Shown: positions 2,823 through 24,224 of the stretch, piece after piece
How the letters are laid out: each line of letters starts with the position of its first letter
Numbering within the stretch: the first letter of the stretch is position 1
Origin: an uncultured Candidatus Saccharibacteria bacterium
Lineage (GTDB): Bacteria; Patescibacteriota; Minisyncoccia; Phycocordibacterales; CAIJYI01
Length of the DNA stretch: 24,456 nucleotides
Direction of reading: 5' to 3'
Assembly (NCBI GenBank): GCA_964601555.1
Contig: CAZRNX010000001.1
Span: forward strand, 1-24,456
The notes under the pieces: generated by a model
What the model saw: only the letters and a program-made list of their open reading frames with translations
Database searches by the model: none
What the model was told of the DNA's origin: nothing
Translations under genes and position numbers: made by a program

Positions 2823-3983
2823 ATGAAACTCATTCTTGAAGACGGTACGGTATTTGCGGGCAAAAATTTCGGCGCCGATGTGCGAGCCGAAGGGGAAGTT
2901 GTATTTACAACCGGGATGGTGGGGTATGTGGAGAGCCTTTCGGACCCGTCGTATGCGGGGCAGATTCTCGTTTTCACAACACCCTTAGTCGGCAATTATG
3001 GCGTTCCGGATAGAGAGTTTTTCGAATCGGGCAGGGTGCAGGCGGCGGGGGTGATAGTTTCGGAATACAGCGAGAATTATTCCCATCATACCGCCGAGCG
3101 CTCGCTCTCTCGCTGGCTTACAGAAGCAGGAATTCCCGCCATTACCGGCATAGACACACGCGCGTTGACGAAAAAATTGCGCACGTACGGGGTGATGTTG
3201 GGGTCGATCGTGCACGACAAGCAGATGCCCAAAAACCAAAAGCCATTGAATGATCCCAACGATGAGAATCTTGTCGCGCGGGTGAGCATTACAAGACCTC
3301 AAACGTATGGCAACGGGCCACTCAAAATTATCGCGGTTGATTGCGGAATAAAAGAAAATATCATTCGGAAGCTTACTCGTCCCGATACAACCGTCACACG
3401 CGTGCCATGGGATTATGATTTCACCCGCGAGACATACGACGGCATTGTTTTTGGGAATGGTCCCGGAGATCCGACGGCGTGTACTCCCACCATCAAGCAC
3501 ATTAGAAGAATATTTACACAAGAAAGTAAGAAAGAGAGAAGTAGGCAAAGACCGATGTTGGGGATTTGCTTGGGCACTCAACTCATGGCACTCGCGGCGG
3601 GAGCGAAAACTTACAAGCTCAAATTCGGCCATCGTTCGCAGAATCAGCCGTGTTTACTAGATAACCACCAGACACCAAAATTTTCAAGTCCTCGGAGTGC
3701 CCAGACATTGAAAATTTTGGTGTCTGGTGGTTCACTGCCACAACGCTGTTACATCACTTCCCAAAATCATGGATTTGCCGTGGAAGAGAAGTCGCTCCCG
3801 AAAGATTGGAGCGTGTGGTTTACAAATGCGAACGATGGGAGTGTAGAGGGCATAAGACACAAGACCTCTCCCTGGCAAGCGGTGCAGTTTCATCCTGAAG
3901 CTTCCCCGGGACCCACGGATACAGGGTGGATATTTGACGATTTTCTGAAGATGGTGAGAGAGTATAAAAAAAATGGGAAATAA
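2823..3983 (+). CDS. carA: Carbamoyl-phosphate synthase small (glutaminase) subunit
   Basis: GEVVFTTGMVGY, SDPSYAGQIL, GIDTRALT, NGPGDP, nucleophile GICLGTQ, ITSQNHGFAV, QFHPEA. Confidence 0.97.
   Translation: MKLILEDGTVFAGKNFGADVRAEGEVVFTTGMVGYVESLSDPSYAGQILVFTTPLVGNYGVPDREFFESGRVQAAGVIVSEYSENYSHHTAERSLSRWLTEAGIPAITGIDTRALTKKLRTYGVMLGSIVHDKQMPKNQKPLNDPNDENLVARVSITRPQTYGNGPLKIIAVDCGIKENIIRKLTRPDTTVTRVPWDYDFTRETYDGIVFGNGPGDPTACTPTIKHIRRIFTQESKKERSRQRPMLGICLGTQLMALAAGAKTYKLKFGHRSQNQPCLLDNHQTPKFSSPRSAQTLKILVSGGSLPQRCYITSQNHGFAVEEKSLPKDWSVWFTNANDGSVEGIRHKTSPWQAVQFHPEASPGPTDTGWIFDDFLKMVREYKKNGK
3663..3732 (+). repeat. 70-bp palindromic element in-frame within carA
   Basis: Perfect 25-bp inverted repeat (3663-3687 and 3708-3732) around the 20-nt spacer GTCCTCGGAGTGCCCAGACA. 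Confidence 0.95.
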
Positions 3984-6900
3984 ACATAAAATCAAAAAAG
4001 TGCTTCTCCTCGGTTCCGGGGGGTTGAAGATTGGCCAGGGAGGAGAGTTTGACTATTCCGGATCGCAGGCGATTAAGGCGCTCAAGGAGGAGGGGGTTCG
4101 AGTCGTGTTGATTAATCCCAATATCGCAACTGTGCAAACGGACCCCGGACTCGCCGATATGGTATATTTCCTCCCGCTCACGCTTCCGTTTGCGAAAAAA
4201 GTGATTGAGAAAGAACGGCCAGACGCAATACTTTTAAGCTTTGGCGGACAGAGTGCGCTTAATTTGGGACTCGAACTCGACAAGGGGGGTGTTTTGAAAA
4301 AATATCACATGAGAGTGCTCGGCACTCCTGTTTCTGCTATTCAAGACACGGAAGATCGGGAGCTTTTCATCAAGCGCCTGAAAGAGATTGGCGTGAAGAC
4401 GGCAAAGAGTTTCGCGGCAAGAAATGTTCGTGCCGCGCTCCGTGCCGCCGAGAAAATAGGATACCCGGTAATGATGAGATCGGGATTCGCGCTCGGCGGA
4501 GAAGGTTCGGGTGTTTTAAAAAATTCCAAAGAACTTACACAGAGGGCGATGGAAGCTTTTCGAACCACGACGCAAGTGCTCATCGAAGAATATTTACTAG
4601 GCTGGAAGGAAGTTGAGTACGAAGTAGTGCGCGATTCGGCTGATAATTGTGTCGTCGTCTGCAACATGGAGAATCTCGATCCCATGGGCATTCACACCGG
4701 AGAGAGCATGGTGGTTGCGCCGTCGCAAACACTCACAAACGAGGAGTATCACAGACTTCGCGAGATTGCGATCCAAACAGTGCGGCACTTGGGGATTGTT
4801 GGAGAGTGCAATATTCAATACGCGCTTCATCCCAAGACTGGCGACTACCGCGTTATTGAAGTGAATGCGAGACTTTCTCGATCGTCCGCGCTGGCGTCAA
4901 AAGCAACGGGCTATCCGCTTGCATTCGTGGCGGCAAAAATCGCGCTTGGATCAACGCTTCCGAATCTCACCAATGCGGTGACGAAAACAACGAGCGCGTG
5001 TTTCGAACCGGCGCTTGACTATCTCGTGCTTAAATTGCCGCGCTGGGATCTCGGGAAATTTGAAAATGCATCCGCGCGCATCGGAACGGAAATGAAAAGC
5101 GTGGGTGAGGTGATGGCGATCGGGAGAAGCTTCGAGGAGGTATTGCAAAAAGGACTTCGCATGCTCTGCGTAGGCGCGGACGGCCTCACGGCCAACCGCA
5201 ATGCGAAGTTTGTCATACGGGATTTCGCCGCTGAAATTAAAAATCCCACCCCCCGGCGCGTGTTTGCAATAGCAGAAGCTCTGCGCGCGGGGTGGAGTGT
5301 GAAAAAAATCCACAAACTCTCGTGGATTGATCCGTGGTTTCTGGAAAAAATGAAAAATATTATCAAGATTGAGCAGAGTCTAAGAAACTGTCCGGAAAGC
5401 TTGTTCTCACGGACACGCGTCGCCTCGCCCCGCGAGCGAGGCGCGCTCTTCTCGTCCTCGCTCTCCGCCAGTGGCGGAACCATGCCCGCTCGGACTGCGA
5501 AAGTTCCGCTCAAACAACTTTCCAGCCAGTTTCTTCAGCTTCTTTTAGACGCAAAGAAACATGGCTTTGCTGATGTGCAGATCGCAGAGGCAACTGGGAG
5601 CACGGAAGAAGAGATTAGGGCATTGCGCATCCGGAAGAAAATTCTGCCGGCCGTAAAGCAGATCGATACGCTTGCCGGAGAATTTCCCGCGCAGACTAAC
5701 TACCTCTACCTCACATATCATGGAAGTGAAAATGATGTTGCGCCCACCGAAAGTAACAGGGCAAAAAATATTATCGTACTAGGGAGCGGGCCGTATTCGA
5801 TCGGCTCATCAGTGGAGTTCGATTGGTCAAGTGTGCAGGCGCTAAAAACGCTGAAAGCCGAGGGGCACATAACAATAATGATCAATTACAACCCTGAAAC
5901 CGTCTCCACTGATTACGATGAATCGAGCCGGCTGTATTTCGAGGAGCTCTCGCTCGAACGCGTTCTTGATATTGTGGAATTTGAGAAACCAAAAGGCGTA
6001 GTGATTTCCATGGGAGGACAGATTCCAAACAACCTCGCAATGCCACTTTCCAAAAATAAATCCCTCGGCAGTACACGTATTTTAGGCACCGACCCGAAAA
6101 ATATAGACCGTGCGGAAGACCGGAAGACATTTTCAGACTTACTCGATCGCATTGGCGTCGACCAGCCTCTGTGGGCAAAGCTTTCAACAGAGGAAAAAGC
6201 GCTTCAGACGGCGGAAGAGTTCGGGTATCCGCTTCTCGTGCGGCCGTCGTATGTTCTCTCAGGCGCCGCGATGAGCGTCGCATTCGATCGAGATTCACTT
6301 TTGAAATGTTTAAGGCGAGCCACGGATGTGTCCGCAGAGCATCCGGTGGTGATTTCCAAATTTATCGAAAATGCGCGTGAAATAGAAATAGACGGAGTTG
6401 CGACAAAGGGCGAACTCACCATTTACGCCATTACGGAGCATGTAGAGAACGCGGGCACGCATTCTGGCGATGCGACGGTAGTTATGCCTCCCCAGCACAC
6501 CTATCTTGAAACAATCCGGCGCGCGAAGCATATCACCCGCGAGGTTGTGAAAGAGTTGAGCGTCACCGGTCCCTTCAATATCCAGTTTCTCGCAAAAGAA
6601 AATCGTCTGCAGGTAATCGAGTGTAATGTCCGCGCGTCTCGGAGCTTTCCGTTCATTTCGAAAGCGTCAGGGTATAACTTCGCCGAACTTGCCACACGCG
6701 CGCTACTTGGGAAAGATATTTCGGGAGAATATAGAACGGTTGACCTAGACTATTGTGCGGTGAAGTCGCCGCAGTTCTCCTACCGTCGCATCAAAGGGGC
6801 CGACCCGCTCGCATACGTTGAGATGGCTTCAACGGGCGAGGTCGCGTGTTTCAGTGAATCGTACTCAGAGGCACTTCTCCAGTCCATGCAAGCCGCGGGG

Positions 6901-7362
6901 TTTCGCTTGCCCAAAAAAAATATTCTCATTTCACTCGGCAAAGAAGAAAACAAGGTGAAACTTCTTCCCGCGCTCGAAAAATTTGTCCGATTCGGACTGA
7001 ATATTTTTGCAACAGAACACACAGCAGACTTTTTGCAGAGTCACAATATTGCCTGCACAAAAGTGTATAAGATTCACACAAAGAAAGAACCGAACGTGTC
7101 CGGCTTGTTCGAGAATGACAATACAAAAGGCGGGAGGAGTAGCAAGAAAGGGAAGTTAGACCTCATCATCAACATCCCCGCTTCCGCACTCGCGCGGGAT
7201 TCAAAAGACGGCTTCATCATTCGCAGGAAAGCGGTAGACCTCAATATTCCGCTTATCACCAATCGCCAGCTTGCAGAGGCGTTCATCCTTGCTTTTTCGG
7301 AAATGAAAGAGCGCGGCCGAAACGGCGACTTCGAAGTCAAGCCGCGAGGAGAGTATAGATGA
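3973..7362 (+). CDS. carB: Carbamoyl-phosphate synthase large subunit
   Basis: LGSGGLKIGQGGEFDYSG, two ATP-grasp halves (NMENLDPMGIHTGES, EHVENAGTHSGD), SGPYSIGSSVEFD, C-terminal MGS-like domain. Overlaps carA by 11 nt. Confidence 0.97.
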   Translation: MGNKHKIKKVLLLGSGGLKIGQGGEFDYSGSQAIKALKEEGVRVVLINPNIATVQTDPGLADMVYFLPLTLPFAKKVIEKERPDAILLSFGGQSALNLGLELDKGGVLKKYHMRVLGTPVSAIQDTEDRELFIKRLKEIGVKTAKSFAARNVRAALRAAEKIGYPVMMRSGFALGGEGSGVLKNSKELTQRAMEAFRTTTQVLIEEYLLGWKEVEYEVVRDSADNCVVVCNMENLDPMGIHTGESMVVAPSQTLTNEEYHRLREIAIQTVRHLGIVGECNIQYALHPKTGDYRVIEVNARLSRSSALASKATGYPLAFVAAKIALGSTLPNLTNAVTKTTSACFEPALDYLVLKLPRWDLGKFENASARIGTEMKSVGEVMAIGRSFEEVLQKGLRMLCVGADGLTANRNAKFVIRDFAAEIKNPTPRRVFAIAEALRAGWSVKKIHKLSWIDPWFLEKMKNIIKIEQSLRNCPESLFSRTRVASPRERGALFSSSLSASGGTMPARTAKVPLKQLSSQFLQLLLDAKKHGFADVQIAEATGSTEEEIRALRIRKKILPAVKQIDTLAGEFPAQTNYLYLTYHGSENDVAPTESNRAKNIIVLGSGPYSIGSSVEFDWSSVQALKTLKAEGHITIMINYNPETVSTDYDESSRLYFEELSLERVLDIVEFEKPKGVVISMGGQIPNNLAMPLSKNKSLGSTRILGTDPKNIDRAEDRKTFSDLLDRIGVDQPLWAKLSTEEKALQTAEEFGYPLLVRPSYVLSGAAMSVAFDRDSLLKCLRRATDVSAEHPVVISKFIENAREIEIDGVATKGELTIYAITEHVENAGTHSGDATVVMPPQHTYLETIRRAKHITREVVKELSVTGPFNIQFLAKENRLQVIECNVRASRSFPFISKASGYNFAELATRALLGKDISGEYRTVDLDYCAVKSPQFSYRRIKGADPLAYVEMASTGEVACFSESYSEALLQSMQAAGFRLPKKNILISLGKEENKVKLLPALEKFVRFGLNIFATEHTADFLQSHNIACTKVYKIHTKKEPNVSGLFENDNTKGGRSSKKGKLDLIINIPASALARDSKDGFIIRRKAVDLNIPLITNRQLAEAFILAFSEMKERGRNGDFEVKPRGEYR
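5382..5535 (+). repeat. 154-bp imperfect palindromic element in-frame within carB
   Basis: Arms AAGAAACTG-tcc-GGAAAG-c-TTGTT and AACAA-CTTTCC-agc-CAGTTTCTT, with internal hairpins CGCCTCGC/GCGAGGCG and TCCGCC/GGCGGA. Confidence 0.75.
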
Positions 7363-7367
7363 TCTAT

Positions 7368-7946
7368 TTATTTCTCCGGCAGCCAGCGCTTTTTGAGCGG
7401 AATAAAGGCGAGGGAAACGAGGGTCAAGAGAAATCCGGCAATAAGCACGCGCGTCATATCAAGATATACAAGCGATGATCCGAAGTAGGCAAAGAGAATC
7501 GTGGAGGGGAGAACCCCGAGAAATGTTCCCAAGACGTACGAGCGAAGTGTCACAGTGGTGAGGCCGAATGCGAAGTTAAGCGCTCCCGGGGGGAAAATCG
7601 GCAAGAGGCGCAGAAAAAATACAACAGCAAAACCGTTTTTCTCGATCTTTTTTTCATACTCTGCGAGTCCCTCGATAGTGCGCGTATGGGACCGAAAGAA
7701 CCCTCGTCCGAAATATCGCGCCGTCGCGAAAGAAATGGTTGCGCCGACCGTACCGGAAACGAGAGTGTAGACGGTTCCCAGAACGGGCCCAAAAAGCACA
7801 AGCCCAATGAGCATGAGAGGAAGTCCTGGCGCCATGACAGCGATGGCGAGGGAGTAGAAGACCATATACGCAACCGGCGCAAGCGCACCGTACGCGCGGA
7901 TCGTTTCCTGAAACGCATCGAGATTATATGTAAAGTAATTTTCCAT
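7368..7946 (-). CDS. TVP38/TMEM64 (DedA/SNARE-associated) family membrane protein
   Basis: GxxFGPVLGTVY...GATISFATARYFGR, FFLRLLPIFP, LNFAFGLT, YVLGTFLGVLP; several hydrophobic helices. Confidence 0.88.
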   Translation of the reverse strand: MENYFTYNLDAFQETIRAYGALAPVAYMVFYSLAIAVMAPGLPLMLIGLVLFGPVLGTVYTLVSGTVGATISFATARYFGRGFFRSHTRTIEGLAEYEKKIEKNGFAVVFFLRLLPIFPPGALNFAFGLTTVTLRSYVLGTFLGVLPSTILFAYFGSSLVYLDMTRVLIAGFLLTLVSLAFIPLKKRWLPEK

Positions 7947-7954
7947 GTGTTTGT

Positions 7955-8920
7955 TTATCTCCTTTTCCCATGAAACTGCCTGTGAATTTCACGCAGGCCC
8001 TTGTCTGTCACATGAGTATATATTTGAGTGGTAGAAATATTGGAATGTCCGAGCATTGCCTGAACGCTTCGCAAGTCCGCTCCGTTCTCGAGGAGGTCGG
8101 TTGCGAATGAGTGGCGAAGGGTATGTGGGGTAATTTTCTGAGATATTCCAGCTTTTTTTGCATAGAAATTCACGAGCCGTTCTATACTACGTGAAGTGAG
8201 CCGAAGTGATTTGTTTTTCAACTCCCTCGCGCCCGCGCCTTTGTGGTGGGAAATAAATAATGCATCGTCTATGTCTCCCCGTTTTTTCAGATAAGCCCGA
8301 AGAGCATCTTTTGACTTGGGAGAAAGAAATACCACGCGCACTTTCTCACCCTTCCCCCGCACCGAGAGTTCGTCGCGAGAGAGATCAATGTCCCGAGAGA
8401 GCGAGCAGAGTTCGGAGACACGCAGACCGGTAGAGAAAAGAAGCTCTAAGATAGCGCTGTCCCGAAGAGATTTTATCTCATCGCCGCCCGCACCTTCTTT
8501 AGGCATCTTGAGAAGCCGCGTGAGTTCTTCATGCGTCATCACGTCAATGTGTCTTTCAGGGACTTTTGCCAACTCGATTGCTTCCGGCGAAACACTCTTT
8601 ACTCCGCGCTTCGCGAGAAACTTAAGAAAAGCGCGAAGAGCAATGAGATAATAATTCTGCGTGCGTTTTTTCATCTCTCTTTCTTCTCTTTTATCTTTCC
8701 CGCCTCCGCTCGCCATCACTTTCTGCCGGTTAAGCCAAATGCGATATTTTCGCAGAAGCTCCTCACTCAAATCTCCCGGCTTTTCCACCCCAGAATCTTT
8801 TTTTACAAATTCCAAAAATCGCGAGAGATACCTATCGTAATTCGCAACCGTAAGAACGCTCCGTCCGCGCTCTATTTCGATATACTCCAGAAATTGCTGT
8901 TTCAGTTTCGCAAGCGCCAT
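7955..8920 (-). CDS. XerC/XerD-family tyrosine recombinase
   Basis: N-terminal FLEYIEIERGRS..TVANY; catalytic set LFSTGLRVSEL, GKGEKVR, HTLRHSFAT, LGHSNISTTQIY. XerC versus XerD cannot be resolved by eye. Confidence 0.93.
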   Translation of the reverse strand: MALAKLKQQFLEYIEIERGRSVLTVANYDRYLSRFLEFVKKDSGVEKPGDLSEELLRKYRIWLNRQKVMASGGGKDKREEREMKKRTQNYYLIALRAFLKFLAKRGVKSVSPEAIELAKVPERHIDVMTHEELTRLLKMPKEGAGGDEIKSLRDSAILELLFSTGLRVSELCSLSRDIDLSRDELSVRGKGEKVRVVFLSPKSKDALRAYLKKRGDIDDALFISHHKGAGARELKNKSLRLTSRSIERLVNFYAKKAGISQKITPHTLRHSFATDLLENGADLRSVQAMLGHSNISTTQIYTHVTDKGLREIHRQFHGKRR

Positions 8921-9002
8921 GGGGATAGTATAGCACCTACCAGAACGTTATACTCAGGCAGGAGTTGCAAAAAAAGCTGTAATATGCTATAGATAATACA
9001 TT

Positions 9003-9269
9003 ATGCTTACCAAGAAAAAGAAGGAGAGTGTCATTAAAAGGACGCAAATTCATGAGAAAGACACCGGCTCTCCGGAGGTCCAGGTCGCCGTGCTTACGAA
9101 GCGCATTGAGGCGCTTACGGAGCACCTTAAAGAGAATATGAAAGACAACCATTCTAGGAGGAGACTTCTTGCGATGGTTGCCGACCGCCGAGCGCATTTG
9201 AAGTATTTGAAGAAAAAGAACACGAAGCGCTACGAGTCTCTTACGAAAAAGTTGGGTATTAAAGCATAG
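9003..9269 (+). CDS. rpsO: 30S ribosomal protein S15
   Basis: HEKDTGSPEVQVAVLT, HLKENMKDNHSRRRLLAMV, LKYL; 88 aa. Confidence 0.97.
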   Translation: MLTKKKKESVIKRTQIHEKDTGSPEVQVAVLTKRIEALTEHLKENMKDNHSRRRLLAMVADRRAHLKYLKKKNTKRYESLTKKLGIKA

Positions 9270-9312
9270 TTTTTTACATTACAGTATTTAATCATTTTTA
9301 TATTTTTATTTT

Positions 9313-9843
9313 ATGGCTGTTATTAAACATCCGAGCCAGCGCGTTGGCGTTTTCATAGACACGCAAAATCTCTATCATAGCGCGAAGAATCTCTATCAGT
9401 CGAAAGTGAATTTCGGAGCTGTACTCAAAGAAGCGGTCGGCGCGCGTCAACTCGTGAGGGCGATCGCCTATGTCATCACGACGGAATCAGGCGAGGAGAA
9501 AAATTTCTTCGACGCACTTACGAAATTCGGGATAGAAACGAAGACCAAAGATCTTCAGATATTTTACGGAGGAGCAAAGAAGGCCGACTGGGATGTGGGG
9601 CTCGCTGTTGATGCGATATCGCTCTCGCCGAAACTTGATGTCGTTATTATTGTTTCTGGAGACGGCGACTTCGTGCCGCTTGTGGAGTTCCTTCGACTCA
9701 ACAGGGGCATTCGAGTAGAGGTTGCGTCCTTCGGCAAGTCCACTTCCGGCAAACTTCGCGAAGTCGTCGACGATTTCCTCGACCTCTGCGAATCGCCGCA
9801 GAAATATCTACTTCGTTCTAACGTTCGCGCGAGAGGGAGGTAA
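9313..9843 (+). CDS. NYN-domain (LabA/DUF88, PIN-like) putative RNase
   Basis: VGVFIDTQNL, KKADWDVGLAVD, IVSGDGDFVPLV, VEVASF, SGKLREVVDDF. Confidence 0.9.
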   Translation: MAVIKHPSQRVGVFIDTQNLYHSAKNLYQSKVNFGAVLKEAVGARQLVRAIAYVITTESGEEKNFFDALTKFGIETKTKDLQIFYGGAKKADWDVGLAVDAISLSPKLDVVIIVSGDGDFVPLVEFLRLNRGIRVEVASFGKSTSGKLREVVDDFLDLCESPQKYLLRSNVRARGR

Positions 9844-9864
9844 AATTAAAAAACAGGCAAAATG

Positions 9865-9890
9865 AAAGAGCGGATTGCTCCGCCCTTTTT
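9865..9890 (+). terminator. Probable terminator after the NYN gene
   Basis: AAAG-A-GCGGA ttgc TCCGC-C-CTTT followed by Ts. Confidence 0.55.
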
Positions 9891-9899
9891 GCAACATAA

Positions 9900-10079
9900 G
9901 GGCTCTTCCGAAAATAACTCCCCCATCTCGCCTCCAAATTTTCCCAATCTCCGACTTTTCTTCCGTCAAAAATCTTTCACTGCAGCTGCTGCTGCACCTC
10001 AAGATTTTTTCAGTCAGAAAAAATCGAATCTTAGAAAAATTTGAAACCGAATCTGGAGAAGTTATTTTCGGAAGAGCCC
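9900..10079. mobile_element. MITE-like 180-bp non-autonomous element
   Basis: Perfect 20-bp terminal inverted repeats GGGCTCTTCCGAAAATAACT (9900-9919) and its reverse complement (10060-10079); TAA on both flanks (9897-9899, 10080-10082); no ORF with a recognisable product inside. Confidence 0.7.
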
Positions 10080-10089
10080 TAAGTCGTTG

Positions 10090-10308
10090 CTAGAATCCGT
10101 GCATATAAGCATTGCCGCACTCGGCACACATATGCAGGCCATTTTCTGGGTCAACGGCGGGACAACTGTTGCACTCTGTGCAAACTTGCGCAGCCGTCTT
10201 TTCAATGATGACATTCCCACCACAATCAGGACACCAACCATCGTTGCTTGGGTCTTGGGTCGTAAATCGATGCCCACAATCTGAACACCATACCCACACA
10301 GTATCCAT
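10090..10308 (-). CDS. Small double zinc-ribbon-like protein (72 aa)
   Basis: Four CxxC motifs (CSDC, CPDC, CTEC, CAEC) plus an extra Cys. GGAGG SD before the ATG at 10308 and a near-consensus promoter upstream. Confidence 0.72.
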   Translation of the reverse strand: MDTVWVWCSDCGHRFTTQDPSNDGWCPDCGGNVIIEKTAAQVCTECNSCPAVDPENGLHMCAECGNAYMHGF

Positions 10309-10342
10309 AGCAGCCTCCAATTATTTATACAAGCACTCTTCT

Positions 10343-10371
10343 ATCTTATCATATACATAATAAAGTGTCAA
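10343..10371 (-). promoter_or_regulatory. Sigma70-type promoter of the zinc-ribbon gene
   Basis: TTGACA-N17-TAAGAT on the minus strand. Confidence 0.7.
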
Positions 10372-10509
10372 ATACTTTCTGTGGGTGATTTTTGGTATAG
10401 TATTTTTATTACCACTAATCGCTGGTTTTCGGATAGGTAGGATTGAAATCGCGCCAAGGGTTTCGGGCGAAGTTTCAATGCTAAAATCTGCGAACCAGCT
10501 CACGACTTT

Positions 10510-14487: not shown

Positions 14488-14528
14488 AGCTATAGATTTT
14501 ATTGTAATATACGCTTATATTTAACACC

Positions 14529-15731: not shown

Positions 15732-15784
15732 GGACCAATCCCTTATCCCTTAGTCTTCCACTCCTCAAGTCCTTAAGGGAGAAG

Positions 15785-15934
15785 TTAGGGACACCCGGGA
15801 TCATTCTTTGGTTTCGGTCCCATGCAAAGAAAACCATTCAAGAAAGCTCGTTTTAACTTTAATTCTTCCTCTTTTGATAAGGGGTTGTTTGACAGGTCTA
15901 ATATGATTAAACCTTGTAAATCTTGTATTTCCGG
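15785..15934 (-). pseudogene. Remnant of a leucine-rich-repeat protein (last repeat plus cap)
   Basis: Translation PEIQDLQGLIILDLSNNPLSKEEELKLKRAFLN fits LxxLxxLxLxxNxL. No start codon of its own in this stretch; AT-richer than the flanking genes. Confidence 0.55.
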
Positions 15935-15935
15935 T

Positions 15936-16295
15936 TTATAAGTGTTTCCTAATCTTATCCGCGTTCCCCGCAAAATCGTTTTTGTCGCCCCGGGCTTCGC
16001 GGGGATTGGGGAAGAGCCAAACATGCGCGTGGAAGACTTCGTCTCCCATCACCTTGCCCCAGACCGCTTCCGTACCGAAAGATTTTTGAATGGCGAGCGC
16101 AACTTTTTGCACTACAGCAAAATACTCTCCGATATTCGGGACATCCCATACCCAGCGGAAGTGTTTCTTCGGAATCACTTGTACGTGTCCGGGCGCTTGC
16201 GGATGAATATCCATTAGTGCTATAAAATTCTCATCTCCATACACTTTTTCCGACGGGATTTCTCCCGAGGCGAGTTTACAGAATATACAGTTCAT
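15936..16295 (-). CDS. HIT-family nucleotide hydrolase
   Basis: MNCIFCKL, DIHPQAPGHVQVIPKKH, triad region VFHAHVW. Start set to the ATG at 16295, 1 nt after the upstream stop. Confidence 0.88.
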   Translation of the reverse strand: MNCIFCKLASGEIPSEKVYGDENFIALMDIHPQAPGHVQVIPKKHFRWVWDVPNIGEYFAVVQKVALAIQKSFGTEAVWGKVMGDEVFHAHVWLFPNPREARGDKNDFAGNADKIRKHL

Positions 16296-16296
16296 T

Positions 16297-16599
16297 TTAT
16301 TTGACATGTTCAAGAAGCGTATTCTTCACGTGGTCTATTTGTTTATGCGAAATGCCATAGTCACTACGGTTCTCCGTGAGCGTATCTGCAATCATTTCGA
16401 TCTCATCTTTCGAGACGCCGCCTCTTGGACTGTAGAAAATGCTTTTATGTTCGCCATGATCGCGGTCAAACTGCTGGTCAAGAAGCCCTTTCACGATGGA
16501 ATACTCGCGATCATTGAGGCGGTTTTCGCCCGTCTTCAATTTCCCGGCTATATGGCCTTTCTCAAACTCTTTTTTTGAAAGTTGGTGTGAACCCTGCAT
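16297..16599 (-). CDS. Hypothetical protein (100 aa)
   Basis: Charged, soluble-looking ORF directly upstream of HIT and co-oriented with it; no motif recognised. Confidence 0.65.
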   Translation of the reverse strand: MQGSHQLSKKEFEKGHIAGKLKTGENRLNDREYSIVKGLLDQQFDRDHGEHKSIFYSPRGGVSKDEIEMIADTLTENRSDYGISHKQIDHVKNTLLEHVK

Positions 16600-16682
16600 A
16601 GAAGTGAAAAGTTACTTATTAAGTGGCACCCTCCTGCCCCTAGGCATTAATTATGACCGAAATACTTTTGGAGTGCAAAGAG

Positions 16683-16778
16683 AAACCCCGTTCCGTGTGG
16701 CTCGGGGTTTTGTCACTACCGTTCTAGCGGTAGCGACTGTTGCCGTGAGGGAAGAGGAGTTATATCCTCACTCACGAC
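16683..16778 (-). ncRNA. Candidate structured RNA or 5' leader with three consecutive hairpins
   Basis: Stems at 16742-16778, 16712-16737 and 16683-16710. Two mismatches are G-U wobbles only on the minus strand. TTGCAT-N17-TATAGA promoter-like motif at 16787-16815. Confidence 0.45.
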
Positions 16779-16827
16779 TTGTGTTATCTATAGCATACTC
16801 GTATGAAAAATGCAAGAAGAATCTATA

Positions 16828-16920
16828 TTGACTTCACATAAATAATAATGTATATTATATCTGGGTGTTCTAGCACCCCCAGGAGGCCTATCCCGGCCTC
16901 CTGGTGTCAGAAGAGGAGGT
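16828..16920 (+). promoter_or_regulatory. Promoter and structured leader of the small lipoprotein gene
   Basis: TTGACT-N17-TATATT (16828-16856); hairpins GGGTG/CACCC and a perfect 10-bp CCAGGAGGCC/GGCCTCCTGG (16879-16904); SD AGGAGGT at 16914-16920. Confidence 0.6.
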
Positions 16921-16925
16921 ATAAT

Positions 16926-17096
16926 ATGGAGAAAGTGAGACTTGCGGCGTTTGCGGTACTCGCCGCTATGTTAGTCGCCTGTGCGGGGCCTACGCCACCG
17001 CCGGTCACAATTGACGCCATGCGAGCTATGGGTGAAGTACGTAAAGACGCTGGCGCCACAATCTATTTCTTTGTTCTCGAAAAGAACTGGGAGTAG
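16926..17096 (+). CDS. Small putative lipoprotein (56 aa)
   Basis: MEKVR, then a hydrophobic stretch and lipobox LVA-C, then a Pro-rich linker. Strong SD, own promoter and terminator. Confidence 0.7.
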   Translation: MEKVRLAAFAVLAAMLVACAGPTPPPVTIDAMRAMGEVRKDAGATIYFFVLEKNWE

Positions 17097-17128
17097 GTTG
17101 AGACTACGTACGAAAACGACGCAACCTT

Positions 17129-17160
17129 GGGCCTGCCTGTTCGGAGGCCCTTTTTATTTC
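17129..17160 (+). terminator. Intrinsic terminator after the lipoprotein gene
   Basis: GGGCCT/AGGCCC stem followed by TTTTTATTTC. Confidence 0.65.
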
Positions 17161-17164
17161 TGTT

Positions 17165-17770
17165 TTATTTCCCGGCTTTCAACGCCGCTGCAAGTTTGGG
17201 GTGGAAGATGTCATCCACAAGACCATATCTCTTCGCTTCATCGGCACTCATGTAGCGGTCTCGGTCGGAATCTCTCTCTATTTGTTCTTGTGACTTTCCG
17301 GTATTTTTCGCGAGGATTTTGTTGAGGTTTTCTTTTGTTTTTAAAATATGCCGTGCGTTGATTTCAATATCAGACGCCTGTCCTTCCACGCCGCCCATCA
17401 CTTGGTGGATCATGACCTCGGCGTTCGGGAGCGCATACCGTTTGCCGCGTTTCCCGGAAGAGAGAATGATCGCACCCATTGACGCTGCGATACCAACACA
17501 GATAGTAGAAACATCAGGTTTGATATGCTCCATCGTGTCGTAGATTGCCAGCCCCGCCGTAACGGACCCGCCGGGAGAATTCACATAGAGCATGATGTCC
17601 TTCTTCGGATCTTCGGCTTCCAGAAAAAGCAGCTGCGCCACTATTAAGTTAGCCATATGGTCGTCTATGGCACCCGCAAGGAATACTATCCGCTCGCGCA
17701 GAAGCCGCGAATAAATGTCATACGCCCGTTCGCCGAACTGTGACTTCTCTATAACGGTTGGAATAAGCAT
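17165..17770 (-). CDS. clpP: ATP-dependent Clp protease proteolytic subunit
   Basis: [31 protein letters not shown] (catalytic Ser), MIHQ (His), [10 protein letters not shown]. Confidence 0.97.
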
Positions 17771-17787
17771 CTTAGTTTTTTTTATTG

Positions 17788-18024
17788 TTAATGTCGGAGC
17801 TTCACCTGGCGGATTTCGTACTCTAAGCGCGAAATGCGCGCAAGGACATCGTGCTCTTCGGACTTCTCAATCTGCTTCAACCGCTCAGCGGTGGTATCCC
17901 TGAATTCAACGAACTCTTCCTGAAGCCGCGCCAGATCGCCCGAAAGCTTCTCAAGTCCCTTGTCTTCAGCGATTCGCGACACTGCGCTGTCCACGTATGC
18001 TTTGATAGAGTCATTCAGTTCCAT
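17788..18024 (-). CDS. Small coiled-coil hypothetical protein (78 aa)
   Basis: Heptad-like Leu/charged pattern; lies between tig and clpP, co-oriented; TATTAT motif 6 nt before the ATG. Confidence 0.7.
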
Positions 18025-18038
18025 GGTTTTATAATACT

Positions 18039-18116
18039 CTGATTCGTGAAATAAGTAAAATTTTCAACGTCTGGGCACTCCGAGGACTTGGAAATTTTAC
18101 TTATTTCACGAATCAG
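18039..18116 (-). repeat. 78-bp palindromic element overlapping the tig stop codon
   Basis: 29-bp inverted repeat with one mismatch (18039-18067 and 18088-18116) around a 20-nt spacer that matches the carA spacer at 19/20 on the minus strand. Confidence 0.95.
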
Positions 18117-19114
18117 GTTTCCAAAAACTCCATCACCTTCTCATTTATAAAGATAGATTCCACATAAGCTCTTGTGCGTTCCGGATCGGCGTCTCCATAA
18201 TGCCTAAGAAGATGCGCCACTTCTTTCTCCACCGCTTCTCTTTCTGGCGTAATATTTTTCTCTTGCGCAATATGTTTCAATACGAAGTTAGTCTTCACAC
18301 GCTTCTCTGCATCCGGAAACCACTCCTTGCGAATTTCTTCTTCACTTTTCTTCGCATGCTTCAAGTATTCGTCAAATGTTACGCCCATCGCCGCCACGTC
18401 AGCCTTGAACTGTTCCAGCATGGTTCGAAGTTCGCTCTCCGTGAGTATATCTGGGATCTCGCCCTTTGTTTCGGCAACGATTGCATCAAGAATTTCCGCG
18501 CGCTTCTTCGACCTGGCGCGATGCTCCTTCTCTTTCAAAAGATTCTCTCTTACTTTTATTCTCAGATCGTCAACAGTTTTAAAATCACCGACAGACTGTG
18601 CGAAGGCATCATTAAGCACCGGCAACTCTTTGTCCTCCTGCCCTCCTGTTTTTACCGCTCGCAACTCCCGCAATTTCTCGATAGCCTTTTCAACTTCTTC
18701 GTCCGAAACGCTCGCGACATCTTTCTTAGTCCGCTTTTCTTTTGTTTTTTTCTCGTAATCGGGAAGAGTAATTTTCGGGTAGGTGGCCGTGCGAATCTTA
18801 AAGCCGAGCGGGTTTCCCCGCGCAAGTTTGGTAAGCGATATGTGCGGCCGGCCAATCGCTTCTATTTTCTCTTCCGCAAGAATTTTCGGGTAATACTCGG
18901 CGAGAGCAAGCTCCGCCATCTTCTCTAACACGCCCGTTTCACCGACTTGCGCGGTGATAATATTTTCCGGGATATGTCCCTTGCGGAAGCCATCTATCGT
19001 GAGCGTATCTCCGAGCTTCTTCACGGCATGACTGCGAAATGCCTCAAAAATATCCGCGGGTATCTCGTCCGTGATCTCAACCTCGGATTTTGGCAACTTC
19101 TTTAATTCCGTCAT
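18113..19114 (-). CDS. tig: Trigger factor, short form (333 aa)
   Basis: Ribosome-binding signature IDGFRKGHIP, C-domain LNDAFAQSVGDFKTVDDLR...AEKRVKTNFVL. Start set to the ATG at 19114, 7 nt after a TTGACT-N17-TATGCT promoter. Confidence 0.92.
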   Translation of the reverse strand: MTELKKLPKSEVEITDEIPADIFEAFRSHAVKKLGDTLTIDGFRKGHIPENIITAQVGETGVLEKMAELALAEYYPKILAEEKIEAIGRPHISLTKLARGNPLGFKIRTATYPKITLPDYEKKTKEKRTKKDVASVSDEEVEKAIEKLRELRAVKTGGQEDKELPVLNDAFAQSVGDFKTVDDLRIKVRENLLKEKEHRARSKKRAEILDAIVAETKGEIPDILTESELRTMLEQFKADVAAMGVTFDEYLKHAKKSEEEIRKEWFPDAEKRVKTNFVLKHIAQEKNITPEREAVEKEVAHLLRHYGDADPERTRAYVESIFINEKVMEFLET

Positions 19115-19155
19115 AGCTAGAAGCATAGCGGGGGAGTAGAGAAAAGTCAAAAAAC

Positions 19156-19203
19156 AATCAAAAGTTAAACCTCGCTGGTACCAGCGAGGTTTAACTTTTG
19201 ATT
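19156..19203. terminator. 48-bp perfect palindrome, probable terminator upstream of the tig promoter
   Basis: AATCAAAAGTTAAACCTCGCTGGT followed directly by its exact reverse complement; U-rich run on the minus strand. Confidence 0.65.
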
Positions 19204-19219
19204 AACTCACGGCTCGGGA

Positions 19220-19576
19220 TTATAAGTTTTGCAGCTCGCCGTCCATTTCATTGAAGTTCGTGGCGTTTAAGTCAGCCTCTATATCAGCCGTCTCATCCGA
19301 GGTACCCTGTTGAGAGAGAGCCGCAGTTGCCGCGTCTGCATCCGCTGCAGGCATCATTTCACCGCCCTCTATCATCGGGCCGTCTTCCAGCATTCTATCT
19401 ATCTGTTCTTCTTGCATCTTGTTATTCCAGAGGTAGAGCCCGCCCAAGATGAGTACAACGATAATAATAACAGTGCCGATGAGAGCGCCTGACGACTTCT
19501 CATCTTCGTCCGACATCGGAGCGCCCATCTGCGGCAGAGGAGACGTGTTGGAGCTTGGATTTTGTTGCATGTCCAT
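19220..19576 (-). CDS. Hypothetical single-pass membrane protein with an acidic C-terminus
   Basis: GALIGTVIIIVVLILGGLYLW helix; acidic tail (SDETADIEADLNAT). Confidence 0.85.
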   Translation of the reverse strand: MDMQQNPSSNTSPLPQMGAPMSDEDEKSSGALIGTVIIIVVLILGGLYLWNNKMQEEQIDRMLEDGPMIEGGEMMPAADADAATAALSQQGTSDETADIEADLNATNFNEMDGELQNL

Positions 19577-19607
19577 AATTTTATGAATTTAATTTAATAA
19601 ATAAAAT

Positions 19608-20234
19608 TTATTGGGCTGGTGTTGTTGTGGCCTTCTTCGCCGTATTCTTCCCCTTTTTGATCTCCGTAATAGTGACGACAAGCGCCTTGTGGGCAGCTTT
19701 CATCGCTTCTATCGCTTTGCCTATTGATTCGCGCGCCTGCTTCAAACTGCTCGCCACGGGGTTTGGCGTACTCGTCCCCATGTTGGCGGGGAGCGCCGCA
19801 AGAATACCCTCAACGACTGTTTTTGCATTGGCAACGGCAGACTTCGCGGCGTCAATCTTTGTCTTTGCGTCCGCGAGCGAGGTTTTCGCTTTGGAGACAT
19901 CCACTCCTTCCGACTCAAGTTTTGTAATGCGCGACTCGATCCTTCCTGCGAGCTTCACCAAGCGCCCAATTCCCGCGTCGAGCCTGTGTAGAACTCTCCT
20001 AAAATGATTGCGGATAATATCTTCTCTTCGCTCCATCCGCATTTCCTTCATCTCTCCTCGTTTCTCCTCCATTTTCTCCTTCATCTCCCCGCGCATTTCC
20101 TTCATCTCGGCGCGTTTGTCCTGCATTTTGCCCCGCATTTCTCCGCGGGTGCTCGTACTCGTCTCTGCGGTTGCAACAGCTCCCGACAGAAGCAATCCCG
20201 CACCAAGTATACTTGCGACAATGATTTTCTTCAT
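19608..20234 (-). CDS. Secreted coiled-coil protein with E/M/K/R repeats
   Basis: Signal peptide MKKIIVASILGAGLLLSGAVATA; repeats such as KRAEMKEMRGEMKE/KRGEMKEMR; long Ala/Lys-rich helices. Confidence 0.88.
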   Translation of the reverse strand: MKKIIVASILGAGLLLSGAVATAETSTSTRGEMRGKMQDKRAEMKEMRGEMKEKMEEKRGEMKEMRMERREDIIRNHFRRVLHRLDAGIGRLVKLAGRIESRITKLESEGVDVSKAKTSLADAKTKIDAAKSAVANAKTVVEGILAALPANMGTSTPNPVASSLKQARESIGKAIEAMKAAHKALVVTITEIKKGKNTAKKATTTPAQ

Positions 20235-20363
20235 ACTTTTTATATTAAAACTAATAAATAATTCGCATAAAATACAAGATACAACAAGAATATTCTAGCA
20301 TGAGTGGAATACCCCCGCTATCAGCATATGTTGATAACAGAATACCCCGTATTGACGATTGCG

Positions 20364-20948
20364 TCATTCAAACTTCGGCGCGTAATCTTTCCGATACCTT
20401 TCCGCGCACTCTTTGATGACCCTTAAAGCCTCCTCCGGCCCGTGAAATGTTTCTACCACCCCGGTTCCGGGCTTCTTGAGCGCTTTGTAGTTTTCCCAAT
20501 AATATTTTGTCTCTTTCTGCCAGTATTCTCCCAAATCTTCAAACGTCTTAATATGGTCTGTTCTCTTATCGTCATTCAGAACAGCGATAATTTTGTCGTC
20601 CACTTCGCCGCCGTCAACGAATTTCATTACGCCGACAACACGCGCCTCGACAAGTGATCCCGGCACGAGCGGCTCGGTAATATTTACGATCTCCACATCA
20701 AGCGGATCGCCGTCTTGATCCCATGTAAGTGGAATCGCGCCGTATGTAAATGGGTATGCGAGCGACGAGTAGCCGACGCGGTCGAGCTTCAACTGTCCGC
20801 TTTCGGTAATGATCTCGTATTTATTGATGTTTCCAGCCGAGACTTCAACGATCGCATTCACTACCCCCCTTGCTTCATCGGTAAAGGGGGGCAAAGCATG
20901 CAAAAGATTCAACATGTACTTCGACGGCTTGTGGTCTATGTGCGCCAT
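20364..20948 (-). CDS. ppa: Inorganic pyrophosphatase (family I)
   Basis: NKYE, LKLDR, YPFTYGAIP, DGDPLDV, DGGEVDDKIIAV, YWENYKALK. Confidence 0.93.
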   Translation of the reverse strand: MAHIDHKPSKYMLNLLHALPPFTDEARGVVNAIVEVSAGNINKYEIITESGQLKLDRVGYSSLAYPFTYGAIPLTWDQDGDPLDVEIVNITEPLVPGSLVEARVVGVMKFVDGGEVDDKIIAVLNDDKRTDHIKTFEDLGEYWQKETKYYWENYKALKKPGTGVVETFHGPEEALRVIKECAERYRKDYAPKFE

Positions 20949-20973
20949 AAATTATTTAAGTGAGGCGAATAAT

Positions 20974-22200
20974 TTATTCTGCAGTCTTAGTTTCCTCTGT
21001 TTTTTCTTCAATCGTTTCAGTTTGCTCTTGCTTGCTTTCTTCCAATGCCGCCTTTTCTTCTTCTGACGGACCCGTTCCGTGAATGTCAATTTTCCACCCG
21101 GTGAGCTTCGCGGCCAGACGAGCGTTCTGGCCGCCCTTGCCGATTGCAAGCGAGAGCTCCGGCTCTGCAACGGTTACATCTGCGCGATGCTCCTCCTCGT
21201 TTAATTTCACGGACAAAATTTTTGCGGGAGAGAGCGCGTCGGCGATGAATTTCTCCGGCTCGCTTGACCACTCGATGAGATCTATTTTCTCGCCGCCAAG
21301 TTCGCTCATGACGGTAGAAACTCTCACGCCGCGCTGGCCCACACACGACCCCACGGGATCGATGTGAAGATCGTTGGAATGTACCGCGATTTTTGATCGG
21401 CTGCCGGGCTCTCTTGCGATCTGCTTCAATTCCACAGTACCACTCGCAACTTCCGGTGCCTCGATTTTAAAGAGCTCTTCCAGGAATTTTGGATGGGTTC
21501 GGGAAAGCCGCAAGTTGATGCCGCGGGGCGTTTCCTCAACACGAAAAAGGTACGCACGGATTCGTTCCCCGGGGCGGTATCGTTCGCGCGGGGTCTGTTC
21601 TTCAAACGGCAGGATGGCGGTTGTTTTGCCGAGGTCAACGAAAATATTGCCGCGCTCAATTCTTTGCACCGTACCCGAAACAATCTCGCCCTCTTTTCTG
21701 CCGAATTCTTCAAGGGTGGTCACTTTTTCCGCTTCGCGGAGTTTTTGTATTATCACCTGCTTTGCGGTCTGCGCCGCAATGCGCCCATAATCTTCTTTCA
21801 ATTCGAGCGGAAAGACGATTTCGTCCTCAAGCTCCGCGTCTTTTTTGATCATCCTCGCGTCTTCAATGAGAATATGATGCTCGGAGTTGTAGCGCGTTCG
21901 CATATCTTCTTCATCTCCCGAAGTCTCGGCGGACGGGGATGGATCTCCCCCTTCGTCTTCCGTCTCTTTCGGAACGCGCACGACGCTTTCATCAACAACA
22001 ACTTTCACCTGCGAGAATTCCGTCGCGCCTGTGTCGAAATCAAAACGCGCTCGGACGATCTGCCCCTTTTTCCCGTACTCTTTTTTATACGCGGCGGCAA
22101 GCGCCATCTCAATGGCTTCCAAGATCTTTTCTTTCGAGATGCCCTTCTCCTGCTCCATCTGCTCGAGCGCCGAGCGAAGCGTTTTCAGATCAAATCGCAT
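20974..22200 (-). CDS. nusA: Transcription termination/antitermination factor NusA
   Basis: EKGISKEKILEAIE, YGRIAAQTAKQVIIQKLREAE, LSRTHP, IAREPGSRSKIAV, CVGQRGVRV, AIGKGGQNARLAAKLTGWKIDI. Confidence 0.97.
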   Translation of the reverse strand: MRFDLKTLRSALEQMEQEKGISKEKILEAIEMALAAAYKKEYGKKGQIVRARFDFDTGATEFSQVKVVVDESVVRVPKETEDEGGDPSPSAETSGDEEDMRTRYNSEHHILIEDARMIKKDAELEDEIVFPLELKEDYGRIAAQTAKQVIIQKLREAEKVTTLEEFGRKEGEIVSGTVQRIERGNIFVDLGKTTAILPFEEQTPRERYRPGERIRAYLFRVEETPRGINLRLSRTHPKFLEELFKIEAPEVASGTVELKQIAREPGSRSKIAVHSNDLHIDPVGSCVGQRGVRVSTVMSELGGEKIDLIEWSSEPEKFIADALSPAKILSVKLNEEEHRADVTVAEPELSLAIGKGGQNARLAAKLTGWKIDIHGTGPSEEEKAALEESKQEQTETIEEKTEETKTAE

Positions 22201-22228
22201 GAGTTTATAAGTAAATTGTTAATTTTTT

Positions 22229-22297
22229 AAAAAATAAAGTCCGTCCCTCGACGGCCTTCACACTTTCTATCTTACTCCCACGCAAAACAACTGTCAA
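22229..22297 (-). promoter_or_regulatory. nusA promoter with a leader hairpin and U-tract (candidate attenuator)
   Basis: TTGACA-N17-TAAGAT (22269-22297); hairpin AAG-G-CCGTC gagg GACGG-A-CTT (22237-22258) followed by TATTTTTT. Confidence 0.6.
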
Positions 22298-22355
22298 CAA
22301 CCAGCATTTGGAGACTTTTTTTGCTCCAAAACAAACTACAGGCTATACTGTCTCC

Positions 22356-24224
22356 ATGTCTAATTTCTCTTTTGGGAAAGAAATGCCGGGTCATGTTCTG
22401 AAAGAGCTTGCGGAATATCCAGAGTTCCTGCGCGCGCTTCTCTTTCACCGAGATATTACAACTCGCGAGAAAGCAGAGAAGTTTCTCCATCCGTCGTACG
22501 AGCGCGACTCGAACGATCCGTTTCTGATGCACGACATGAAAAAAGCGGCAGAGCGAATCGTACGCGCGATTGAGGGGAGAGAGAAAATAGTGATTTTCGG
22601 CGATTATGACTGCGACGGCATCCCCGGCTCGGTGGTGCTCCATGACTTTTTCAAAAAAATAGGCTACACGAACTTCTCAAACTACATTCCCCATAGGCAC
22701 AACGAAGGGTACGGCTTGAATATCAAAGCGCTTGAAAACTTTACCCGAGACGGCGTGAATCTTGTTGTGACCGTTGATTGCGGCATTGTTGATTTCGAAC
22801 AAGCTCTCACGGCACGAGAACTTGGGCTTGACTTGATTATCACCGATCATCACTTGCCGGGAGAGAAAATCCCCAATGCTTTTGCTGTTGTAAATCCGAA
22901 ACTTTTATCTGCCGATGAGACAGATGGGGAAGAATATCCCGACTCGATGCTCTGCGGCGCAGGAGTAGCGTTTAAGTTGGTGCAGGCCCTTTTGGAAACA
23001 AGTACTATAGCCGGAGCGAAAAATATTTTTCCTGAAACCTCTTCCCCCCCAAATTCGCTACACGAATTTGGCCGCGCCCCCGCCCCGGTTTCAGCAAAAA
23101 CATTTTCCGCTCCGGCAAACCGTTCTTTTCGCGAAGCGTTTAATATTCCTCCCGGCTGGGAGAAGTGGCTCCTCGATATGGCGGGACTCTCTACTGTCGC
23201 TGACATGGTGCCGCTTCAGAACGAGAATAGGATGATTGCCTATTATGGACTGAAGGTTCTACGCAAAAGCCAGCGCATTGGGCTCAAGAAACTTCTGGAG
23301 AAAATGCGCATACAGCAGGAGAATCTCACAGAAGACGACATCGGCTTCATGATCGCGCCGCGGATTAATACAGCGTCTCGAATGGATATTCCTATGCGCG
23401 CATTTGAACTTCTCTCGACGGCTGATGAAAAGAAGGCGGACGCACTCGCAATGCATTTACATACGCTCAATGATCAGCGCAAGGGGGTGGTTGCATTGAT
23501 GGTGAAAGAAGCGAAACACACGCTTACGAACCGCGAGGTAGGGGAAGTGATCGTGACCGGGAATCCCAAGTGGTCGCCCGGACTCCTTGGCCTTGCCGCA
23601 AGCGCGATAGTGGAGAATTTCCACCGTCCCGCTTTTGTCTGGGGCAAGGATGAGGAAGGAAAAATCAAGGGCTCATGCCGCTCGGATGGTTCGGTTTCTG
23701 TCGTGGAACTCATGTCGCGCAGTAAAGAGTATTTCATACAATACGGCGGACACGAAGCATCGGGAGGATTCATGGTGTCGTATGAACACATTCACATTCT
23801 TGAAGAAAGACTTTCTCTTGTATACAAAGAGATGGGGGGGAAGAAAGAAAAGAAAGGAAGTGAAGAGATTTTCATAGATGCGAAACTCTCTCTTGATGAC
23901 GTGAATTGGGAGAATTACAAAATGATAGAGAGCCTGTCGCCATTCGGGCAAGGTAACCCGAAGCCGGTGTTTCTGTTTGAAAATATAAAAATAGAGAGCG
24001 TACGCGAATTCGGCAAAACCGGCACGCATCTCGAGCTCGTTTTCAAAAATTCAAAAAATATTCCCGTGAAAGCAGTCGCGTTTTTTAAAGCAAACGGCAA
24101 GAAAGATACAGAAGGGGAGAGACACTTCGCGCCCGGCGACACGCTAACTCTCGCCGTATCAATAGAGAAAGATAATTTTAAGAGATATCCGGAGCTGCGG
24201 TTACGGGTGATTGAAATTACATAA
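22356..24224 (+). CDS. recJ: Single-stranded-DNA-specific exonuclease RecJ
   Basis: DHH motifs FGDYDCDG, VTVDCG, ITDHH, TVADMVPL, APRINTASR, GSCR, GGH. Start set to the ATG at 22356, 6 nt after TTGCTC-N17-TATACT. Confidence 0.95.
   Translation: MSNFSFGKEMPGHVLKELAEYPEFLRALLFHRDITTREKAEKFLHPSYERDSNDPFLMHDMKKAAERIVRAIEGREKIVIFGDYDCDGIPGSVVLHDFFKKIGYTNFSNYIPHRHNEGYGLNIKALENFTRDGVNLVVTVDCGIVDFEQALTARELGLDLIITDHHLPGEKIPNAFAVVNPKLLSADETDGEEYPDSMLCGAGVAFKLVQALLETSTIAGAKNIFPETSSPPNSLHEFGRAPAPVSAKTFSAPANRSFREAFNIPPGWEKWLLDMAGLSTVADMVPLQNENRMIAYYGLKVLRKSQRIGLKKLLEKMRIQQENLTEDDIGFMIAPRINTASRMDIPMRAFELLSTADEKKADALAMHLHTLNDQRKGVVALMVKEAKHTLTNREVGEVIVTGNPKWSPGLLGLAASAIVENFHRPAFVWGKDEEGKIKGSCRSDGSVSVVELMSRSKEYFIQYGGHEASGGFMVSYEHIHILEERLSLVYKEMGGKKEKKGSEEIFIDAKLSLDDVNWENYKMIESLSPFGQGNPKPVFLFENIKIESVREFGKTGTHLELVFKNSKNIPVKAVAFFKANGKKDTEGERHFAPGDTLTLAVSIEKDNFKRYPELRLRVIEIT
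23010..23116 (+). repeat. 107-bp palindromic element in-frame within recJ
   Basis: 30-bp arms matching at 27/30 (23010-23039 and 23087-23116); internal hairpin CCAAATTCG/CGAATTTGG. Confidence 0.85.

Follow-up and report, generated by a model that had tools for sequence, protein, structure and literature searches.

Palindromic repeat families in and between the genes of a groundwater Patescibacteria genome

The window analyzed here consists of 24,456 nt of contig CAZRNX010000001.1 (GCA_964601555.1, forward strand) and is part of a groundwater Patescibacteria assembly, hereafter G000, of 774 kb in 129 contigs and 96% completeness. Five long hairpin-forming segments lie in this window: within carA, carB and recJ, immediately after tig, and between an NYN-domain gene and pnp. 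The locus raises the question of whether these segments are mobile palindromes that have been written into genes and are read as part of the host proteins, as is the case for the Rickettsia palindromic elements (RPEs), and, if so, whether they form one family and how they spread. A preliminary description of the window had proposed a single RPE-like system that creates new peptide loops. This proposal holds in kind, as the elements are repeated, mobile and read in frame, but it does not hold as one family. We consider it likely that the segments represent several unrelated palindromic families with no genes of their own, which moved recently and behave within genes as RPEs do. For three of these families, spread by polymerase template switching is suggested below.

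Palindrome families of the window

We scanned G000 for inverted repeats with a stem of at least 16, at least 88% paired positions and a span of at most 260, using five dinucleotide shuffles as the null. Overall, 79 hairpins were detected across the genome, compared to 7, 4, 2, 0 and 1 in the shuffles. Mobile palindromes had been expected to show such an excess, along with further copies genome-wide and empty alleles in relatives; all three were found, the copies belonging to families A, B, C and E and the empty alleles occurring at seven sites. Seven of the 79 hairpins fall in the window, and for the five segments described initially both the inverted-repeat scan and the raw sequence agree with the coordinates first given. 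BLAST and clustering of all hairpins, however, divide these five segments into at least three unrelated sequence families, namely A, B and a superfamily composed of C and E, which rules out one family for all five. The segments and their host genes are the following:

2823..3983, forward strand: carA, intact host gene (Pfam CPSase_sm_chain and GATase)
3663..3732, forward strand: family A hairpin in carA (inverted-repeat scan; perfect stem of 25/25 bp, 20-nt loop)
3973..7362, forward strand: carB, intact host gene (Pfam domains on both sides of the insert; PDB alignment)
5382..5535, forward strand: carB insert, a GC-rich branched palindrome (18-nt arms, 89% complementary; in frame)
9899..10080, forward strand: family B miniature inverted-repeat transposable element (MITE) between the NYN-domain gene and pnp (182 bp, 27-bp terminal inverted repeats at 93%, TAA on both sides)
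18039..18116, reverse strand: family A hairpin after tig (inverted-repeat scan; 29-nt arms, 97%)
18113..19150, reverse strand: tig, host gene (Pfam Trigger_N and Trigger_C)
22308..24224, forward strand: recJ, intact host gene (Pfam and alignment to a solved homologue)
23010..23116, forward strand: family C nested hairpin in recJ (inverted-repeat scan; 30-nt arms, 90%)

The carA, carB and recJ inserts are unchanged in independent per-run contigs from four public sequencing runs; these cover two groundwater samples, from which the G000 assembly may derive, and none of their joints bypasses the inserts. Together with the in-frame property and with the copies present in other genomes, this rules out an artifact of assembly or amplification.

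Family A is a hairpin of 70-78 nt with 10 copies in G000, including those of carA and tig. The loop of the carA hairpin is GTCCTCGGAGTGCCCAGAC and its in-frame reading is NHQTPKFSSPRSAQTLKILVSGG. This loop and an inner stem (AAAATTTCCAA/TTGAAAATTT) are near-invariant among the copies of G000; the carA and tig copies have a 19-nt loop exactly in common, as well as the inner stem, in agreement with the near-identical core that had been noticed in two of the segments. The outer stem is different in each copy and is still perfectly Watson-Crick. A covariance model of the family detected approximately 12 copies in G001, a genome of the same genus, and three in G004, a genome of another genus, and no copy in the other 38 relatives searched. 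Across these two genera the flanks of the tip (CAAGTCCTCGG...CAGACATTGAAAAT) are kept while the stems differ. When genome contigs were scanned with the tip, the only hit besides chance matches was the same-genus metagenome-assembled genome 'uncultured bacterium SRR6158310_bin.79'. Most family A copies lie between adjacent genes, such as rpsL and rpsG (S12 and S7), rplW and rplB (L23 and L2) or the pilus genes T2SSE and T2SSF, or upstream of mraZ, and the intergenic placement holds in G001 and G004 too; carA hosts the only coding copy in G000. The copy assigned to the 3' end of tig is a real hairpin, although it lies just 3' of the gene rather than inside the coding sequence, with only its first arm supplying the TGA stop (18113-18115). 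The encoded trigger factor has 345 aa, with N- and C-terminal domains and no peptidyl-prolyl isomerase domain.

Family C counts four copies in G000: in recJ, in comM (contig C2:14330-14436), in comEC (C10:13847-13957) and in an open reading frame of 231 aa (C10:8812-8919). All four read PPNS.xEFGRAP in the same frame. Family E, with approximately 10 copies in G000, one of which is found in uppP, is related to family C, and both are nested hairpins with the same module order: stem, A/T run, TTCCTCGC, central hairpin, CTCGTCA, A run and stem. BLAST of both families against eight family-level relatives returned no copies outside G000. A scan of metagenome contigs with the family C core gave no real BLAST similarity among the 80 loci listed, an absence to which we attach little weight. 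The carB insert shares TCCTCGC-TCTCCGCC with family C (15/17) and bears the right module, CCGCTCG...GAAAG, in the order and frame seen in families C and E. Judging from these shared modules, it is probably a diverged member of the C/E superfamily.

Family B is an ordinary MITE of the IS5/PIF-Harbinger type, with terminal inverted repeats and target site duplications. G000 contains 26 full copies at approximately 99.5% identity and eight more at contig ends, all of which stop in the element and illustrate how these repeats break assemblies; the read depth of the family is about 24 times that of its flanks. The same TNA triplet flanks both sides of 24 of the 26 full copies. This duplication points to a DDE transposase of the IS5/Harbinger type, which would move family B in trans. 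Two family E hairpins (C6:1503-1776 and C29:~950-1216) are each interrupted by a family B MITE, in both cases at the same TAA within the central loop, and family E is therefore older than family B.

Reading frames, host proteins and empty sites

Wherever a copy lies in coding sequence, whatever its family, it is in frame, as in carA, carB, recJ, comM, comEC and uppP. The view that the conserved enzymes of the window are not disrupted was confirmed by the Pfam domains of carA, carB and recJ, which are whole on both sides of the inserts. When compared to solved homologues, residues 279-306 of CarA, 475-520 of CarB and 232-290 of RecJ are net insertions in proteins that are otherwise collinear. 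The recJ insert is placed between the DHH domain and the remaining protein and reads AGAKNIFPETSSPPNSLHEFGRAPAPVSAKTFSAPA. In-gene copies add a loop of 23-46 residues and leave the host domains whole. AlphaFold2 models residues 269-315 of CarA as coil with a predicted local distance difference test (pLDDT) below 50, within a model that is mediocre as a whole (mean pLDDT 65).

All six coding copies of the C/E type have one orientation and frame and read F-S/P-S-S-x-L; between three and five of the six frames are open in these elements, yet one frame is used. In four of the six in-frame hairpins (70, 154, 107 and 107 nt) the length is not a multiple of three, and therefore the hairpin cannot be the inserted unit. 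A methylpurine-DNA glycosylase gene (C104:102-647) matches its Pfam profile in two stretches, and this split match may be another in-frame insert.

Comparison with relatives returned both filled and empty sites. The tig end is empty in G001, where the protein ends in ...LESE and the stop codon is followed by a spacer of ~40 nt. The comM and comEC sites are empty even in this same-genus genome, the recJ insert is absent from the recJ of five sister-genus genomes, and the uppP site is empty in a relative. The junctions between rplW and rplB and between rpsL and rpsG are filled in G000 and empty in sister genomes and, conversely, two G001 copies face empty sites in G000. The copies arrived after the split from the sister genomes, and the empty sites at tig, recJ, comM, comEC, uppP and the two ribosomal junctions indicate that the elements moved recently. 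In G001 the recJ contig (C90, L029 1-60) starts inside the same linker that hosts the G000 insert, with a small palindrome (CCCCTCTAAAGAGGGG); this linker may have been hit independently, or the assembly may break there.

For carA, none of the six aligned Patescibacteria CarA homologues has the insert (best 71% identical; the nearest are Kaiserbacteria). No carA was found in the 30 relatives searched, the same genus included, so that there is no close empty site for the carA or carB inserts. The carA-carB pair (2823-7362) is missing from all of these 30 relatives, and both proteins obtain better scores with human mitochondrial CPS1 than with E. coli CarA/CarB, a pattern suggestive of patchy distribution or of acquisition within Patescibacteria.

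These comparisons make it extremely improbable that the coding inserts are lineage-specific low-complexity loops, palindromic by chance and unrelated to mobile DNA. The carB insert is the one that such an explanation would fit above all, as it is single-copy and sits in a linker of variable length among CarB proteins, but even there the C/E modules recur in the same order and frame. Moreover, the inserts of carA and recJ recur elsewhere in several near-identical copies, and those of comM, comEC and recJ are absent in close relatives.

Stems and mode of spread

To the 466 stem pairs counted, Watson-Crick pairs contribute 418, G-T pairs 2 and other combinations 46. The mismatches adjoin the core and are common to copies, while the outer 14-20 bp are perfect though copy-specific. 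Across copies, both partners differ in 16-18 of approximately 30 stem pairs, and hardly any pair has changed in one partner alone; across genomes, both partners differ in 16 of 29 pairs in family A, again with almost no one-sided changes. The near-absence of G-T pairs and the two-sided changes suggest a palindrome at the DNA level, symmetric on both strands, rather than selection for an RNA helix. We infer that DNA hairpins, and not RNA structures, are the form in which families A, C and E act. The architecture, a conserved tip on a copy-specific perfect stem, would be maintained at the DNA level.

Some features of family A could nevertheless be read in terms of selected RNA or transcription elements, such as two-way terminators, mRNA-stabilizing stems or RNase III sites located behind genes, with the coding copies being accidental. 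Most of its copies occupy the few bases between operon genes (rpsL and rpsG, rplW and rplB, T2SSE and T2SSF, or after tig), seven of the nine orientable ones are in sense, and conservation is far stronger in the tip than in the stem. RNA elements of this kind are hard to reconcile with the pairing itself, as G-U pairs are nearly absent (2/466) and one strand folds as well as the other. The stems have no U-tract behind them, and the whole window has no Rfam match at the gathering threshold. In sister genomes the same operon junctions are free of the element, and a perfect stem of 25-30 bp in the carA or recJ mRNA would more likely be harmful. For these reasons we give little credence to selected RNA elements, for family A or for the other hairpins. 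A tRNA scan of the window found nothing. Integron attC-like sites were also discarded, because no cassette array is present and because a conserved tip on a variable stem is the opposite of what attC sites show.

If the elements are DNA hairpins, they might be moved in trans by an enzyme encoded elsewhere. The preliminary description had indicated HUH, IS5 or IS110 transposases as candidates, but we were unable to connect any of them with family A, C or E. In particular, these families could be hairpins similar to repetitive extragenic palindromic (REP) sequences and to REP doublets forming hairpins (REPINs), or derived from IS200/IS605, which a Y1 (HUH) transposase or a REP-associated tyrosine transposase (RAYT) would move as single-stranded DNA by recognizing the tip or the hairpin. 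The conserved tip has the size of a protein recognition site and the usual terminal inverted repeats are absent; in addition, G000 has a Y1_Tnp gene (C22:4733-5128), and five Y1 matches occur in G004, a genome with family A copies. The Y1 gene of G000, the only one there, covers however just positions 6-103 of the 121 of the profile and then diverges, its C-terminal part being missing. G001 has approximately 12 family A copies and no Y1 match, although absence is unproven with both assemblies being fragmented. The consensus arms (ATGAATTACGAAATACT...) do not bear the GTAG or CGTC end tag that marks the REP superfamilies (PMC3733652), and the elements are ~70-110 nt long as opposed to 20-40 nt for REPs. 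Overall, we regard movement by such an enzyme as unlikely. The truncated IS200-type Y1 gene (C22:4733-5240) adjoins a tRNA-like sequence, and two family B MITEs in opposite orientation (3226-3407 and 7038-7219) flank the Y1 region of this contig.

We tentatively propose that families A, C and E spread without any dedicated end-cutting transposase, by snap-back template switching of a polymerase. Through a short A-rich microhomology, a nascent or replicating strand would jump to a donor hairpin, whose conserved core it would copy. The new strand would then snap back on the short imperfect inverted repeat of the core itself, copy the host flank upstream in the reverse direction for a few to ~15 nt (8-18 nt in the fuller form of the proposal), and resume on the host template. 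Copying of the host flank in this way would produce an outer stem that is copy-specific yet perfect and would explain the near-absence of G-T pairs. It would also give a net insertion that is a multiple of three even though the hairpin length often is not, and one shared frame, as the target codons look like GGN-GAR-AAR and are in phase with the GAG-GAA-AAT of the core. Template switching can make perfect stems and apparent compensatory changes in a single event (PMC8794818).

The pairs of filled and empty sites provide indications in this direction. The empty targets are alike (GGN-RAA-AAA) and resemble the left end of the core. In comM, taking out 99 nt restores ...EEG-KK... exactly as in the empty same-genus gene, which implies that the 5' arm opens with 8 nt of host codons and that the 3' arm repeats these in inverted form. 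The 5' arm of the uppP copy encodes KPVGN, compared to KPQTN in the empty homologue, and the net insertion amounts to 69 nt of the 84-nt hairpin. The comEC and recJ sites are compatible with a host-derived arm, but ambiguous.

Several observations weigh against this proposal and, more generally, against our interpretation of the elements. A shuffle test of the arm against the empty site was not significant (best p 0.08-0.15), and we therefore hold the snap-back idea only as an inference from position and frame arithmetic, and regard it as less likely than not. The case for a host-derived arm is weak, with one clear site pair and two or three suggestive ones. Arm sequence, for example ATGAATTACGAAATACT, is common to several copies of A and E that lie at unrelated loci, which indicates that the arms are at least partly carried by the element. 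The arms at the junction of rplW and rplB do not resemble the host, and a TAAAAAA direct repeat is seen there instead. For families A, C and E we found no mover in an assembly whose fragmentation (129 contigs) could hide one, and no reverse transcriptase was found, an absence that fragmented assemblies leave unproven; gene searches with PF13586 and PF00078 gave no matches. As for family B, a DDE_Tnp_4/HTH_Tnp_4 gene is present on contig C120 of G000, a short scaffold that contains a gap, where no family B terminal repeat was found; lacking matching ends, this gene was rejected as the autonomous partner. BLAST and clustering of hairpins detected no second copy of the carB insert in G000. Finally, it is from their open frames that the inserts are predicted to be translated.

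If true, template switching would amount to a polymerase-driven writing of new peptide loops into genes across Patescibacteria. As sister genomes provide clean pairs of filled and empty sites, the mechanism of insertion can be tested directly.

Other inverted repeats were also observed. A perfect 48-nt palindrome (24+24, no spacer) at positions 19156-19203 of the window, between the start of tig and the upstream gene, is unique in G000 and could be an operator or a terminator. Arrays of ACTAGT/ACCAGT-like hexamers (CTGGTAACTAGT...) at C5:8336-10796 and C17:1100-1241 contain many overlapping inverted repeats. Three paralogous recombinase-like genes (C53:441-636, C95:1797-1992 and C44:4697-4868), which by eye and from sequence alone resemble serine recombinases, each have a perfect inverted repeat of 16-22 bp around the same internal segment of ~160 bp. 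The C44 arms differ from those of the C53/C95 pair, with pairing kept despite the sequence change.

Relation to known systems

The elements of G000 can be compared with four known systems. Quasipalindrome mutation by template switching (Ripley model; PMC8794818, PMC7202029) creates perfect stems, two-sided changes and inverted adjacent copies in one event, as it would have done here. It is however a local process, whereas in G000 it would also carry a conserved core from a donor to a new locus. MITEs of the IS5/PIF-Harbinger type resemble family B in their terminal inverted repeats, 3-bp TNA target duplication and high copy number, with the difference that no full-length element with family B ends was found in G000.

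REPs, bacterial interspersed mosaic elements (BIMEs) and REPINs are dispersed extragenic palindromes that follow genes, with a hairpin as the recognizable unit and with movement assumed to occur in trans, features that they share with the elements described here. The latter have a longer stem and copies inside coding sequence. REPs measure 20-40 nt, end in a GTAG or CGTC tag and have a linked RAYT gene (PMC3733652), while our elements occur without the tag or an intact Y1 gene. Judged by their size, by the lack of the end tag and by the failure to find an intact Y1 gene, they fall outside the REP/REPIN-RAYT systems.

The RPEs, RPE-1 to RPE-10 (Ogata et al. 2000, 2002; summarized in PMC10969869), are likewise small gene-less palindromic repeats that form several families in a reduced genome. 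In both cases copies occur between genes and, in frame, within unrelated housekeeping genes whose products stay intact, and no mover has been identified. RPEs have one conserved peptide per family, and so do the C/E-type coding copies. The two sets of elements differ in phylum and in size, those of G000 being shorter (70-115 nt compared to ~100-150 nt). The likeness is one of functional class, based on behavior, and we draw it as an analogy with no claim of homology. To our knowledge, a conserved tip or core with copy-specific and perfectly complementary outer stems has not been reported for RPEs. By the same analogy, the in-gene copies may be selfish DNA that persists only where it is tolerated as a loop.

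Our literature searches returned no description of such elements in Patescibacteria. In genomes of the Candidate Phyla Radiation, the inserts lengthen protein annotations. Selfish palindromes read in frame are classically a peculiarity of Rickettsia, and the presence of several such families in Patescibacteria suggests a general route to peptide loops in reduced genomes.

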